Shown one piece after another: positions 15,379 through 41,382 of a stretch of DNA of 64,000 nt (position 1 is the stretch's first letter; each line of letters begins with the position of its first letter). The notes under the pieces are model-generated. The model made no database searches. It saw nothing but the letters and a program-made list of their open reading frames with translations, and was not told the origin of the DNA. The stretch lies in contig CBDCKW010000009.1 of NCBI GenBank assembly GCA_965218435.1, forward strand, positions 960,001-1,024,000. Reading direction: 5' to 3'. A program made the translations under genes and the position numbers. The DNA is from Truepera sp. (GTDB lineage: Bacteria; Deinococcota; Deinococci; Deinococcales; Trueperaceae).

Positions 15379-15753
15379 GCCCTTTTGCAGGCTACTTTTC
15401 TCTTAGCGACCTCAGTCGAAGATTCTCTTAGCCGCTCGAGCACCAACGCGTCTCTGCTGAGTTGCCCAGCAGCCTAACGACTCGCTCTTACCGGGCTACA
15501 TTCGAAATTGCCGTGGGTTTATCAAAGACAATGACCTCAGCAGGAGACAGTGTTCTGGCACGTCTCGATCTTTTGGAAGTCAGGTAGAGGCCAACGGTTG
15601 AGGGAATGACGGGGAGTAGCGACCTCTTACCTAAGAGTGACCTCAAGGCCGTGAACCGAATTATGTAGCTGTAAATAAGGTGTAAACCGACTTTATAAAG
15701 AGCAACCCCCGCATCCGACGGGGGTCCTTTGTTGCGTCACACACGATCTTTTT

Positions 15754-15798
15754 TGGTAGGCGCGGGCAGGATTGAACTGCCGACCTCTACAGTGTCAA
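15754..15798 (-). repeat. att core: duplicated 3' 45 nt of tRNA-Val
   Basis: Identical to 41308-41352; identity stops in the anticodon loop. Confidence 0.97.
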
Positions 15799-15924
15799 GG
15801 TCAAAAAGGCTTTCACGGTTAATCACGCATCGTCACTTAACAAGCTAAATAACTCGACCCTGACGCAAATATATCAACTGCACTTTTTATTTCATCACGA
15901 GCTTTCACGCTTTGTTTTGAGCCT

Positions 15925-15947
15925 GTGGTCTTAAATTGGTCTTAAAT
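15925..15947 (+). repeat. Putative integrase arm-type site (TGGTCTTAAAT x2)
   Basis: GTGGTCTTAAATTGGTCTTAAAT recurs exactly at 41217-41239. Confidence 0.8.
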
Positions 15948-33091: not shown

Positions 33092-33391
33092 ATGATCAAG
33101 ACCGTCCCGGCAGTCAAAGCAAGGCAACAGTTCGGCAGTTTGCTTAACGAGGTAGAGCTTACTGGGGCGAGTATCGTCATTGAGCGCGACGGCAAACCCA
33201 AAGCGGTGATGGTGTCCGTGGCCCGCTTTGAAGCTTGGGAGAAGCGCCGGGAACAGGCGCTAGAGAACCTGAAAATGCAAGCTGAGCGTAATCAGGCGTT
33301 GCTGGGCGGCGAGGGTGTAAGCTTCGATGCGCTCATGGACGAACTGGTCAGCGCCAGCAAAGACGCCCGCAAAGAAACGGTCAAGCCCTAA
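33092..33391 (+). CDS. Phd/YefM-family antitoxin
   Basis: AVKARQQFGSLLNEV...IVIERDGKPKAVMVS. Confidence 0.9.
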   Translation: MIKTVPAVKARQQFGSLLNEVELTGASIVIERDGKPKAVMVSVARFEAWEKRREQALENLKMQAERNQALLGGEGVSFDALMDELVSASKDARKETVKP

Positions 33392-33397
33392 ACGTCT

Positions 33398-33817
33398 GTG
33401 CTGGTCGTTTTAGACACGAATATCCTGATCGCCTTTTCTATCACCAATCGTCCCCCTATTACGCACATCAGAGACGCCTGGTTGACGGGCAAGCTGGACA
33501 TCGCCGTGACCGAAACCCTGATAGAGGAATATACGCGGGTCACAGGTTACAAGCACCTTGCCAGATACTTTGAGGGCGCGGAGCGTCAGGAGCGTATAAG
33601 TGAGCTTTACGATTTCGGTGTCCTGATTGAGATTGCCGAGCCGTACCCCGACGCGCCCGACCTGGATGACCGCTACCTCTTTGCGATGCTTGAGCATCCT
33701 CTGGTGGTGGCGCTGGTTACAGGCGATAAGGCGCTCCTTGGGCTCGAGTCTTTTGGGGGCAAGCCCATCCTCGGCCCTGCGGCGTTTGTGCAGCGAGTTC
33801 TGAATGCGCAGGGCTGA
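33398..33817 (+). CDS. PIN-domain toxin (VapC-like, PIN_3 type)
   Basis: VVLDTNILI...IEEY...PDLDDRYL...LVTGDKALL. Confidence 0.9.
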   Translation: MLVVLDTNILIAFSITNRPPITHIRDAWLTGKLDIAVTETLIEEYTRVTGYKHLARYFEGAERQERISELYDFGVLIEIAEPYPDAPDLDDRYLFAMLEHPLVVALVTGDKALLGLESFGGKPILGPAAFVQRVLNAQG

Positions 33818-36729: not shown

Positions 36730-37163
36730 GGAGTCACAGCTAGCCCTTCGTATGAACTTAGCCAAACGTAGTGTGCTATCTTCTGCACGTCCAACCGATC
36801 AGTGCGCCAGCTTTAACATCACGGCTGGCGCACTTGAAACGGTGATTTAAGCAGCGTTAGGTAAGACCATCGTTTCAAGGGTTCTAAGCTGATATCGGGC
36901 CAAATCCCACTTGAGCCCAGCGAGTTCAAACGCACACGTTCTTATCACGATAAAACAGGCAGAGCTTTCCTAATCGAACCTTTAACTCCATGAAACTTAA
37001 GCAGCCATTAAGCTTCGCCTCTTAGTATGTTCACATCAAAAGCTTAACGAGAGGAAGGGCCGTAAGCGTCCGTCTAACACACCACCGTCGTGCTGTGAGG
37101 TTTGGGGTGAAAAGGGGCTCACAACACCGTTCAGCGTCCGAGGGACGTAAGGAGGGTTCAAAA

Positions 37164-38565: not shown

Positions 38566-38895
38566 TTATGCTGCCTCGCGGTAGGGTTCAAACAGCCGCA
38601 CGCTGTAACATGCCAAATCCCACTCGAGCCGCGCGAGTTCAAAAGCGCAGCGAGCTTCTATCAGCGCGTCCTCAGCTTCAGCGAGCGCCGCATACTCCGA
38701 ACTCAGCTCGAGCCGTAGCTTAGCTGTCCGCTCCCGTTCGTTCTTACCTTCTACGCCTTCACAGAGCTTGTGTGCTTCACTCAGCTCGAGCCCTCGCTTG
38801 GCTTCAGCGTGAGCAGTGACCGCACCGCATAAGGTGATCTGAGTATCCTCTAAGCCGTTCTTAGCTTGGGTGAGTTGGGATAAGAGAGGGGCCAT
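38566..38895 (-). CDS. Hypothetical helical phage-type protein
   Basis: EGKNERERTAKL motif; TAATG coupling with the upstream ORF. Confidence 0.75.
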   Translation of the reverse strand: MAPLLSQLTQAKNGLEDTQITLCGAVTAHAEAKRGLELSEAHKLCEGVEGKNERERTAKLRLELSSEYAALAEAEDALIEARCAFELARLEWDLACYSVRLFEPYREAA

Positions 38896-39062
38896 TAGGC
38901 CGCCTCTCCCCAGAAGTCATAGTCAGGTACTTCGTCTTGAATGATGGGGGGCAGTTCATCGTCTGCCCCGTCGTCTTCAGCTGCCAACTCTGCGTAAAGA
39001 GCTTGTAAGTCCTCTTCACGGTCGCTGTACATCTCGATGTCCACGAAAGTAAAGGGGCTCAT
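38895..39062 (-). CDS. 55-aa highly acidic protein (absent from the ORF track)
   Basis: MSPFTFVDIEMYSDREEDLQALYAELAAEDDGADDELPPIIQDEVPDYDFWGEAA; TAATG overlaps on both sides. Confidence 0.8.
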   Translation of the reverse strand: MSPFTFVDIEMYSDREEDLQALYAELAAEDDGADDELPPIIQDEVPDYDFWGEAA

Positions 39063-39268
39063 TAAAGAGCCCTCGCTGCGACACGTACTGCTGCTTTGAT
39101 GGTGGTGTGCTTAGAGACGCAGTTAAAGCCAGCGTCTAAAACCTCCCAGACGGTGCCCCAAGTCTGAAGCGTGCCGACCGTGACGCCGTTACGCTCGAGG
39201 TCATACGCCTTAACGGGGGTGCGGTAGCTTGCGCCGTCTTGCTTGTGAAGGGTGATGGTATTGTTCAT
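39062..39268 (-). CDS. Small hypothetical protein
   Basis: 68 aa, GGAG RBS, first gene of the coupled triplet. Confidence 0.7.
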   Translation of the reverse strand: MNNTITLHKQDGASYRTPVKAYDLERNGVTVGTLQTWGTVWEVLDAGFNCVSKHTTIKAAVRVAARAL

Positions 39269-39328
39269 GTGGAACTCCGTTTCTAGTTAGGGGCTGTACT
39301 TTTGCGGGTCTGCCCTTAACTGCCTCTA

Positions 39329-39385
39329 TACTACCATGCGTATGCTAGTAATACAAGGGGTGTAGCAGCTTGGGGTATGCTAGTA
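39329..39385. promoter_or_regulatory. Putative operator in a divergent promoter
   Basis: GTATGCTAGTA at 39340-39350 and 39375-39385; imperfect inverted copy TACTACCATGC at 39329-39339. Confidence 0.65.
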
Positions 39386-39392
39386 TAAAGAC

Positions 39393-39761
39393 ATGGTTAC
39401 TTGGAAACTACGCGAATACTTAGATGCTCATAAGGTCAGCGCCTACGCCCTGACAAAAGCAGCTGACCTAGCCCCCAACACCGTCTACGCGCTGGCGCGT
39501 GGCGACCAGGGCCGGGTAGACCTAGTTGTGTTGGATAAGGTCATTACTGGGCTTGAGCAGCTCACCGGGCAGACGGTCACGTTTAACGACCTACTCGAGC
39601 GCGATACCCAAGACGGCGGCGTGGCGGTTGACGATTCAGAATATGAGTTTCCCGACGGCGTACCCGACGATATACGTGAGCGCATAGAACGCTTTGAGCA
39701 GAGTGATAAAAGGGGTAAGCCGCTCCGAGAGATTGCGGCTAAGTACGGTGTGAAGCGTTGA
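39393..39761 (+). CDS. Cro/C1-type HTH regulator with an antitoxin-like C-terminus
   Basis: WKLREYL...SAYALTKAADLAPNTVYALARG...FNDLLE; acidic tail; overlaps relE. Confidence 0.8.
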   Translation: MVTWKLREYLDAHKVSAYALTKAADLAPNTVYALARGDQGRVDLVVLDKVITGLEQLTGQTVTFNDLLERDTQDGGVAVDDSEYEFPDGVPDDIRERIERFEQSDKRGKPLREIAAKYGVKR

Positions 39762-40066
39762 CCTATGAGGTTATTGTGTCGCCTCTAGCTGAAGCCGATT
39801 TAGACGCGATTACCGACATGCGAACCCGTAAAGCAGTCATTCGCAAAACTTTTGACCTTAGTACCGAACCCGACAAGCAAGGCAAGGCGCTAGGCAGAGA
39901 CTTAGGCGATTACCGCGTTGTCAGAGCCGCAGGGCAACGTTACCGAGTGGTGTATCAGATAGCGAGTCTCGAGGGTGTGGTGACGGTCGTGGTGGTGGGT
40001 ATCCGCAAGGAAGGCGACAAGAAAGACGTGTACCGAGTAGCTAGCAAACGGTTAGGAAAGGGGTAA
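39758..40066 (+). CDS. RelE/ParE-family toxin
   Basis: YEVIVSPLAEADL...GKAL...L.DYRVVRAAGQRYRVVY...VVVGIR. Confidence 0.9.
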   Translation: MTYEVIVSPLAEADLDAITDMRTRKAVIRKTFDLSTEPDKQGKALGRDLGDYRVVRAAGQRYRVVYQIASLEGVVTVVVVGIRKEGDKKDVYRVASKRLGKG

Positions 40067-40068
40067 AG

Positions 40069-41211
40069 ATGGCGCGTAAACGAGCAGACGGTGAGGGCAC
40101 AATTTCTAAACGACCTGACGGCACCTGGGAAGCTAAAATCAGCTTGGGTTACGACGGTGAGGGTAAACGGAAGCGCAAAACCGTTTACGGACGTACCCAG
40201 GGCGAAGTCCGTGAGAAGATCGAGGTACTTAAACAGCAGGTGTCTAGCGGCACTTACACCGACACAAAACTGACGATAGCGGCTTACCTCGAGCGTTGGC
40301 TAGGGGAGAAGAAGCGTACGCTAAAGCCCTCGACGCTCGAGCAGTACGAGAGCTGTATCAACCGCTCGATTGTGCCGATCATCGGGAGTGCCAAGCTCGA
40401 TAAACTTACCCCTTTGCAGGTGCAAAACCTCGTCAACGGGATATACGATGTTTCGGGAGCGGCAAGGGCGGCAAAGTGTCGAACGGTACTTTTCAGCGCC
40501 TATAAACAGGCAATCCGCTGGCAGCTTGTGACTCGTAACCCTGTAGAGGTGACCGAGCCCGTAAAAGAGCCGCACCGAGAAATGACCTTATGGGAGCCGG
40601 AACAGGCGGCACGGTTTCTCGATGTGGCAAGGGGACACCGGCTCTACGCTTTCTTTTATCTAGGCATGGCCACAGGGTTGCGTCGCGGTGAGTTGTTAGG
40701 GCTGCGCTGGATTGATATAGAAGAGAACCTTTTGCACGTCAAGCAAACGCTTGTGAAGGTGGGGAGTCAGCTCATCCTCTCGACGCCGAAAACCCGTAAG
40801 GGATTTCGCACCGTCGCCTTATCGCCGGACGTACTCGAGGTGCTTCTCTTGCACCGTCAGCGCCAGGACGCCGAGCGTGCTCTACTCGGCGATACCTGGA
40901 AACACCCTGAACTGGTTTTTACCTCCGAGGTCGGGACACCCCTGAACCCTGACAACCTCAAGCGAGTACGCGATTACCTCATGGAGAAAGCCGACGTGCC
41001 CCGTGTCCGCTTGCACGATCTGAGACACCTACACGCTTCCCTCGCAATCAAGGGCGGGATGGACGCCAAGGTGCTAGCCGACCGTCTGGGCCATAGCCGC
41101 GCGTCGTTTACGCTAGACCGCTATACGCACCTTTTTGAATCGCAGAGGGCGCAGAGCGCGGTGTCCTTGCTTGATTTCTTACCTAAGAGCGACCCCGACG
41201 TACTAAACTAA
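40069..41211 (+). CDS. int: Tyrosine recombinase (phage/ICE-type integrase)
   Basis: N-terminal arm-binding RADGEGTI...GTW; TGLRRGELLGL, HDLRH, RLGH, RYTH. Confidence 0.97.
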   Translation: MARKRADGEGTISKRPDGTWEAKISLGYDGEGKRKRKTVYGRTQGEVREKIEVLKQQVSSGTYTDTKLTIAAYLERWLGEKKRTLKPSTLEQYESCINRSIVPIIGSAKLDKLTPLQVQNLVNGIYDVSGAARAAKCRTVLFSAYKQAIRWQLVTRNPVEVTEPVKEPHREMTLWEPEQAARFLDVARGHRLYAFFYLGMATGLRRGELLGLRWIDIEENLLHVKQTLVKVGSQLILSTPKTRKGFRTVALSPDVLEVLLLHRQRQDAERALLGDTWKHPELVFTSEVGTPLNPDNLKRVRDYLMEKADVPRVRLHDLRHLHASLAIKGGMDAKVLADRLGHSRASFTLDRYTHLFESQRAQSAVSLLDFLPKSDPDVLN

Positions 41212-41216
41212 ATCTC

Positions 41217-41239
41217 GTGGTCTTAAATTGGTCTTAAAT
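41217..41239 (+). repeat. Putative integrase arm-type site (TGGTCTTAAAT x2)
   Basis: Same 23-mer as 15925-15947. Confidence 0.8.
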
Positions 41240-41307: not shown

Positions 41308-41382
41308 TGGTAGGCGCGGGCAGGATTGAACTGCCGACCTCTACAGTGTCAATGTAGCGCTCTCCCACTGAGCTACGCGCCT
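41308..41382 (-). tRNA. tRNA-Val(GAC)
   Basis: Cloverleaf AGGCGCG...CTACA-TTGACAC-TGTAG...GTTCAAT...CCA. Confidence 0.97.

Follow-up and report, generated by a model that had tools for sequence, protein, structure and literature searches.

What would a mobile island gain from three very small, overlapping genes, the middle one of which codes for a strongly acidic peptide? The question is raised by a 64,000-nt stretch of DNA from Truepera sp. (contig CBDCKW010000009.1 of assembly GCA_965218435.1, positions 960,001 to 1,024,000; below, the window), in which these genes, here called g1, g2 and g3 and together the cassette, lie divergent from a gene for a helix-turn-helix (HTH) regulator. In our analysis, the cassette is likely to be the early, repressor-gated arm of a family of Trueperaceae islands that integrate at tRNA genes and carry defence systems, and also of one 10.5-kb circle. 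As for its function, we tentatively favour a repressor-gated burst-and-clear module for establishment or host interference, probably timed by ClpXP. The first-pass annotation of this locus had proposed an anti-defence or DNA-mimic operon of the Ocr, ArdA or acr type; its description of a coupled, conserved island operon behind a repressor-type gate stands, whereas membership in the Ocr, ArdA or Acr-Aca families does not.

The g1-g2-g3 operon and its products

The coding part of the cassette consists of the following features.

39268..39062, minus strand: g1, open reading frame (ORF) of 68 amino acids (aa), basic, pI 9.4
39062..38895, minus strand: g2, 55-aa ORF, acidic, pI 4.05
38895..38566, minus strand: g3, 109-aa ORF, acidic, pI 4.9
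38561-38537, minus strand: terminator-like hairpin, 10 pairs (7 G-C) and then a T-rich tail, 5 bases past the g3 stop

At both the g1/g2 and the g2/g3 junction the coding strand reads TAATG, stop and start overlapping by one base, and a GGAG-like Shine-Dalgarno stretch can be read from the sequence 5' of each of the three starts. Coordinates and junction reads agree with the earlier description of three minus-strand ORFs joined by TAATG and closed by a hairpin, and the composition claimed for g2 (18 Asp plus Glu, one Arg, no Lys) is likewise correct. The absence of g2 from the ORF track would be due simply to its length, which falls short of the customary 60-aa threshold; many public assemblies list it as a called gene. 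A 6-bp G-C-rich hairpin at 39055-39072 holds the g1/g2 TAATG junction in its loop and may tune translational coupling.

Five distinct copies of the cassette are present in this genome, four intact and one decayed. Four of the copies are chromosomal, and one of these is the decayed copy, frameshifted in g1 and g2 with g3 still open. Public protein collections hold 43 relatives of g1, 82 of g2 and 193 of g3, the last being 73-86% identical among the 120 listed; none of the relatives is named and none has a Pfam domain. The ratio of nonsynonymous to synonymous substitution rates (dN/dS) was taken over seven copies and 21 pairs (the window, L017, L018, L020, L002, L007 and L023), leaving aside L019 (frameshifted), L003 (values equal to those of L023) and L008 and L022 (partial or divergent). 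Median pairwise dN/dS was 0.21 for g1, 0.07 for g2 and 0.18 for g3, with dS at about 0.75. The low median of g2, together with an in-frame 8-residue insertion in the acidic linker of one copy, indicates that g2 is translated and under stronger constraint than either g1 or g3. The first-pass annotation had kept open that the peptide might be neither translated nor conserved; the ratio and the 82 relatives point the other way. We take g1-g2-g3 to be one translated, translationally coupled operon of a mobile island, kept by purifying selection.

The net charge of g2 is about -17.5 in 55 residues, and its 82 relatives have medians of 17 acidic and 2 basic residues. In the alignment, the N-terminal strand and amphipathic helix are conserved, the acidic linker varies, and the tip, Trp-x-x-Ala-Ala, is again conserved. 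Proteins of 98-136 aa in three other genera have the g2 motif as their C-terminus, joined to unrelated N-domains; these fusions lie directly upstream of a g3 homologue and divergent from an HTH_26-integrase pair, and g1 is absent. Such arrangements indicate that g2 and g3 are the core pair, persisting where g1 is replaced.

The model of g3 obtained with AlphaFold2 (AF2; mean pLDDT 92.7) is an antiparallel coiled-coil hairpin, whose tip, G-V-D/E-G-K-N, is the most conserved stretch of the protein. The g3 family is the most widespread of the three, being found in 40/301 Deinococcota genomes and 13/55 genera. In IMG/VR it has two distant relatives only (49% and 34% identity), on two viral contigs, and both match only PHROGs of unknown function; the nearest g3 clusters in the Atlas are unnamed and mostly viral, with a UvsY-bearing cluster at 0.87 that is a lead only. 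Searches of plasmid and phage collections by tblastn with g3 gave no match. Overall, g3 is a member of a family of phages and mobile genetic elements that is spread through Deinococcota. Its best Foldseek match in the PDB had E 0.1. The wide VIA-align matches were ties at Z 11 among generic hairpins (PrgA, FliJ, YscO and colicins, with UvsY at Z 8.8) and were judged uninformative, and a metal site was dropped as a candidate because the cysteines are not conserved outside the genus.

The AF2 model of g1 (mean pLDDT 91.3) has five beta-strands and a basic C-terminal helix. No clear solved relative was found, the best Foldseek match in the PDB having E 0.29 and the best wide VIA-align match Z 5.1 (YkuJ). 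Many small, uncharacterised proteins of phages in BFVD are similar in structure to g1 (TMq 0.6-0.72, E >= 0.015), a lead only. The g1 profile found 25 matches among 1.84 billion representatives; about 15 are true small relatives, and none was informative. Alignment by hhalign to the one DUF2188 protein of the genome gave a probability of 6% over 22 columns (last strand and helix), and Pfam gave no match for g1.

More broadly, the three proteins have no usable family match in Pfam, PHROGs, NCBIfam, PADLOC or the PDB. No Pfam family came up at E <= 1 for any of them; in PHROGs, g2 matches just one unnamed family (E 0.079) and g1 and g3 none. PDB profile searches with the three alignments returned chance-level rows only (best E for g2, 0.19), and designed-propeller repeat matches for g1 were treated as spurious. 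Neither g1 nor g2 was found in IMG/VR, and the Atlas gave no usable match for g2.

An Ala-Ala C-terminus is present in 76/82 relatives of g2 and in 104/120 of g3 among the relatives listed, against a background of 59/2758 (2.1%) long ORFs of the genome; 0/43 relatives of g1 have it. C-terminal signals of the ssrA type are recognised by ClpX, which this genome encodes, and the tag of the host transfer-messenger RNA (tmRNA) is GTNNQQYAMAA. Based on the conserved Ala-Ala ends and by analogy with ssrA-type signals, g2 and g3 are likely short-lived through ClpXP.

Promoter, operator and HTH_26 regulator

The features that would control the cassette, and the operon that faces it, are as follows.

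39328..39356, minus strand: predicted g1 promoter, -35 TTGTAT (39356-39351), 17-nt spacer, -10 TAGTAT (39333-39328)
39329..39350: putative operator O1, a 22-bp imperfect palindrome made of box 1 and its inverted copy, which spans the spacer and the -10 of the predicted g1 promoter
39375..39385, plus strand: box 2, which overlaps a -10-like hexamer, TAGTAT, 7 nt ahead of the HTH start codon
39285..39321, minus strand: conserved hairpin of 8 pairs at the predicted 5' end of the g1 mRNA
39393..39761, plus strand: HTH_26 regulator, 122 aa, with a C-terminal extension (Pfam HTH_26 E 7.4e-6, above the curated cut-off)
39758..40066, plus strand: ParE/RelE-family toxin gene, overlapping the HTH stop (Pfam ParE_toxin E 6.5e-9; PHROG RelE-like toxin E 5.2e-9)
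40069..41211, plus strand: tyrosine integrase (Pfam Phage_integrase E 1e-19, plus a SAM-like N domain)

The window has exactly two copies of the box GTATGCTAGTA, one at 39340-39350 and one at 39375-39385, and both are in the 124-bp gap between g1 and the HTH gene, so that the divergent arrangement across repeated boxes described earlier is borne out; no further boxes above chance were found elsewhere in the 64 kb. An inverted copy of GTATGCTAGTA with 2 mismatches (9/11) abuts box 1 at 39329-39339 and completes O1. The g1 promoter of the window was read from aligned upstream regions, the consensus scan not having listed it (8/12 matches, under the cut-off). At the same place 5' of g1, five other copies (L007, L002, L017, L018 and L020) have TTGACA, 17 nt and a TAnnnT-like hexamer. 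In other copies, the spacer or the -35 has a palindrome or repeat of its own, which goes with a different HTH variant. The hairpin in the g1 leader has compensatory changes at 5/8 pairs in 9 copies, and its folding energy of -11.8 kcal/mol corresponds to a modest z of -1.68.

The HTH_26 protein is the predicted repressor of the cassette. It is not an Aca-like regulator of the acr type that had been suggested, since its gene is divergent and heads an operon of its own, HTH-ParE-integrase. The position of box 2 over the TAGTAT 7 nt before the HTH start suggests that the mRNA of this operon may be leaderless and autoregulated. The HTH regulators compared share one roughly 80-residue domain, and about 40 extra residues are present only where ParE follows; this extension likely neutralises ParE, which would make the repressor a recruited antitoxin.

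The island, its relatives and their defence cargo

15754-15798: attL, 45-bp repeat of the 3' part of tRNA-Val(GAC)
41308-41352: attR, the same 45-bp repeat; the island between the two is about 25.5 kb

In the window the cassette lies at the right end of this island, which carries a Type III restriction-modification (RM) system, IS1595 fragments, a P63C protein, a CHC2 primase and a DUF3987 helicase, and continues with a Type I RM system, an SBBP lipoprotein, g3-g2-g1, HTH_26, ParE and the integrase. The cassette alone runs counter to the HTH and integrase genes, whose direction all other island genes share. A Phd/PIN toxin-antitoxin pair (33092-33817) is located between the HsdM-S fusion gene and the HsdR gene of the Type I RM system. 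Left of attL (15625-15947) there is a remnant resembling the 3' end of an integrase gene with its terminator, and an exact 23-nt double repeat of the GGTCTTAAAT type occurs at 15925-15947 and 41217-41239. Tandem or earlier integrations may have left the remnant and the repeats behind, or these may be arm-type sites.

The other genomic copies are in 6-10-kb elements with a shared plan: a primase with an AAA_25 or DUF3854 helicase, the cassette in reverse, the HTH gene with or without ParE, and the integrase. A ParE module adjoins the cassette in three of the five genomic copies. Two of the five have a terminase-like pair before the cassette; in L018 (3716-5180) and L019 (8366-9840) a terminase large-subunit homologue is split identically into overlapping Terminase_6N and Terminase_6C ORFs, and this split may be real, or a programmed shift, rather than decay. 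A further arrangement is seen on contig C8 (L020; 21,040 bp), which contains a 10,471-bp unit twice, with two cassette copies 10,471 bp apart, and is probably a 10.5-kb circular element assembled as a dimer. Its unit carries the cassette, an HTH-like gene, ParE, two HTH_17 genes, DUF4238 and a 1031-aa Toprim-helicase, and has no integrase.

Of 17 loci compared by tblastn (L003 and L023 are probably from one organism), 15/17 have a divergent HTH_26-family gene beside the cassette and 15/17 have an integrase. Known defence genes lie just past g3 in 5/9 loci examined, the other four giving no match: the Type I RM system in the window, and elsewhere a Type I methyltransferase and Type II/IIG-like methyltransferases. 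The remaining two of the five are sister islands with a CBASS cyclase with a 2TM effector (L018, 7837-9301) and bSEFIR with Type I RM (L023, 9352-14514). The DNA beyond g3 is a defence-cargo hotspot of these islands. Between the HsdR and SBBP genes of the window there is a 38-nt relic (36899-36936), 87% identical to the 3' end of g3, which suggests that the cargo beside the cassette may be exchanged by recombination within g3.

Among the marks of phage satellites or integrative islands of the PICI or P4 kind, the integrase, the 45-bp tRNA-Val repeat, the HTH regulator and a primase with a DUF3987, AAA_25 or DUF3854 helicase are all seen, and terminase-like genes in two of the five copies. No capsid or tail family was matched in the element scans, in which many ORFs are unassigned, and we found nothing in the literature joining phage satellites with Deinococcota. 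A 7.6-kb contig filed as Coleofasciculus sp., a cyanobacterium (L022), carries an integrase-HTH-g2-g3 module with 73% identity to the Trueperaceae one; it could be either a contaminant or a transfer.

Divergent g3-like genes are found on three plasmid-like contigs of the same genome. On C5, the gene has a g2-like ORF and stands beside DUF6876 (E 1e-30), on which nothing was found in the literature; on C4 it is near a PRTRC gene; and on C3 (L050, 3735-7331) an ArdC-N/M78 gene and a 583-aa ParB-like gene are followed in turn by a g2-like ORF, a 60-aa ORF and the g3-like gene. The acidic C-terminus of the C3 g2-like ORF matches the tip of the host SSB. Ends of the form [LI]PF occur in 28/65,408 frames, with an acidic tail of that kind in SSB and the C3 ORF only; this SSB-tail-like ORF is a candidate decoy in its own right. 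Its comparison with g2 by hhalign is weak (probability 30%). Genes resembling g3 or g2 are also present without an HTH_26 or integrase neighbour, for example in long operons on C3, C4 and C5 and in prophage-like clusters of Deinococcaceae.

Candidate roles and known systems

The burst-and-clear reading that we tentatively favour would work as follows. The HTH_26 protein of the island would bind the 22-bp palindrome over the spacer and -10 and shut the near-consensus promoter. When the repressor is absent or lost, either upon arrival in a new cell or upon induction, a burst of g1, g2 and g3 would follow. The acidic, mostly tail-like g2 and the hairpin g3 with its conserved tip would then act jointly on host proteins that handle or attack incoming DNA, and clearance of both by ClpXP through their ssrA-like Ala-Ala ends would limit this action to a short pulse. 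This reading is favoured because of the operator on the promoter, the g2-g3 core, the likely short lifetimes, the defence-adjacent position and the plasmid-establishment genes (ArdC-N, ParB and DUF6876) that neighbour the paralogues. The presence of the cassette on the integrase-less circle C8 also speaks for it, since the cassette is not tied to the integrase there. An anti-defence role would be plausible.

Several points weigh against it. The promoter, the repressor binding and the ClpXP degron are all predictions from sequence. No product of the operon matches any family known for anti-defence, anti-restriction or host takeover, and the fold searches with g1 and g3 were uninformative. In the genus of L045 and L046, an unrelated basic protein of 66 aa stands before g3 and there is no g2; therefore, g2 is not obligatory. 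The g2-likeness of the C3 and C5 ORFs is weak and partly based on synteny. Finally, the HTH boxes would control only the divergent region, which fits the output of the island's own life-cycle switch equally well.

Such a switch output is the strongest competitor and a possible, if less probable, explanation. The cassette would be the island's own inducer, acting either as an anti-repressor that titrates HTH_26, with acidic g2 as an operator decoy, or as an activator or cofactor that starts excision, replication or packaging, and the switch would stay off through fast degradation of g2 and g3. The cassette holds the xis/early-gene position opposite the repressor-integrase operon of ICEBs1- and SaPI-type elements, it is the only unit with HTH boxes while every other island gene has the HTH/int direction, and labile Ala-Ala tails suit a bistable switch. 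But the g3-like and g2-like genes of C3, C4, C5 and Deinococcaceae exist without an HTH_26 or integrase neighbour, and g2 stays 84-89% identical to the window copy in the other copies, while HTH variants and operators differ widely.

A bolder form of the burst-and-clear reading, which we regard as speculative, is that g2 and g3 define a new class, namely establishment proteins that erase themselves, in the mobile elements of Deinococcota. An acidic docking peptide that copies features of the host SSB tail or of DNA, together with the tip-conserved hairpin, would briefly disarm DNA-surveillance or defence enzymes of the host (possibly the island's own RM), the Ala-Ala ends setting the time.

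The DNA-mimic, addiction and excision-factor explanations are less likely than both the burst-and-clear and the switch readings. It is unlikely that g2 is a DNA mimic of the Ocr, ArdA or p56 kind that blocks Type I or Type III RM (the island's own included), Cas or a RecBCD-like nuclease. Very small acidic DNA mimics do exist, phi29 p56 being one, and the net charge of g2 is conserved over its 82 relatives, in an island that has both Type I and Type III RM and in a family with the defence-cargo hotspot alongside in 5/9 loci. However, no hidden Markov model (HMM) or PDB-sequence match to ArdA, Ocr or any mimic was obtained, and profile searches with all three proteins and structure searches with g1 and g3 gave no link in sequence or fold to Ocr, ArdA or any anti-CRISPR, contrary to the kinship proposed in the first-pass annotation. 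Moreover, conservation of g2 peaks at the hydrophobic-faced helix and at Trp-x-x-Ala-Ala, the linker varying in length and sequence, a pattern more like a docking peptide than a rigid charge array.

Equally improbable is a three-component addiction module, in which a labile acidic antitoxin, g2, would be paired with g3 (or g1) as toxin and g1 would serve as regulator or adaptor, the whole stabilising the island or circle. Small coupled genes, an acidic middle protein that looks disordered in part and has a degron-like end, and the presence of the cassette on a small circle in need of stabilisation would all suit such a module, as would a decayed copy with g1 and g2 frameshifted and g3 open. 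Yet that same copy keeps g3 intact without g2, which would not be tolerable for a toxin, and g3 has an Ala-Ala end too, though a toxin should outlive its antitoxin. In addition, g1-g3 have no toxin or antitoxin family match in Pfam, NCBIfam or PADLOC, g3 is a plain coiled-coil hairpin, and 3/5 genomic copies already have the adjoining ParE module. A recombination directionality factor set, with small, basic g1 and its helpers g2 and g3 steering the integrase to excision, is very unlikely: the cassette does lie divergent beside the integrase operon in 15/17 loci, but it is kept on the integrase-less C8, which has HTH_17 (Xis-like) genes of its own, g1 is swapped for unrelated domains in other genera while g3 stays, and Pfam gives no Xis or HTH_17 match for g1-g3.

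The mobile elements of Deinococcota are almost unstudied, and the cassette offers a compact operon of three unassigned protein families with a promoter-operator design and a constant place beside a defence-cargo hotspot. If it delivers an establishment or anti-defence pulse, it would provide new inhibitor families and a new design principle, inhibitors with their own proteolytic timer; if it is a switch output, it would define how satellite-like islands are induced.

Neither profiles nor layout place the cassette in the ArdA, Ocr, Acr-Aca, known toxin-antitoxin or Xis families. Like ArdA and Ocr, it is associated with a mobile element, here an island that carries RM, and it offers a very acidic protein under predicted early, repressor-type control, g2 having the high negative charge of that group. 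It differs in that g2 has no sequence or profile similarity to them and is a 55-aa protein of one helix and a variable acidic tail, coupled to g3. In acr-aca operons the HTH gene is downstream in the same operon. The combination of small genes with an HTH regulator is shared, whereas the HTH gene here points away from the cassette, stands at the head of the ParE-integrase operon and encodes the regulator of the island itself.

The layout of ICEBs1 is immR-immA-int / xis, and that of the Staphylococcus aureus pathogenicity islands (SaPIs) is stl-int / str-xis. As in these elements, an HTH repressor heads the integrase operon and the divergent promoter would drive small early genes. In contrast to them, the early arm here consists of three genes and a terminator, the replication and packaging genes run the opposite way, and the cassette proteins match no Xis or Cro family.

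In a study of plasmid leading regions (PMC11541004), ardA, psiB and ssb genes are described as transiently expressed early. The idea of a transient entry burst is common to both, and the g2-/g3-like paralogues stand beside ArdC-N, ParB and DUF6876. Unlike the leading regions described there, which have single-stranded DNA promoters, the cassette is found on a small circle and in an island integrated at a tRNA gene, and its predicted promoter is double-stranded, of the sigma-70 type and fitted with an HTH operator; no family is shared with the leading-region genes. As to ssrA-type degrons, members of the g2 and g3 families have an x-Ala-Ala end, as does the host tmRNA tag, with the difference that the tmRNA tag is added whereas the g2 and g3 ends are gene-encoded, their recognition by ClpXP being predicted.

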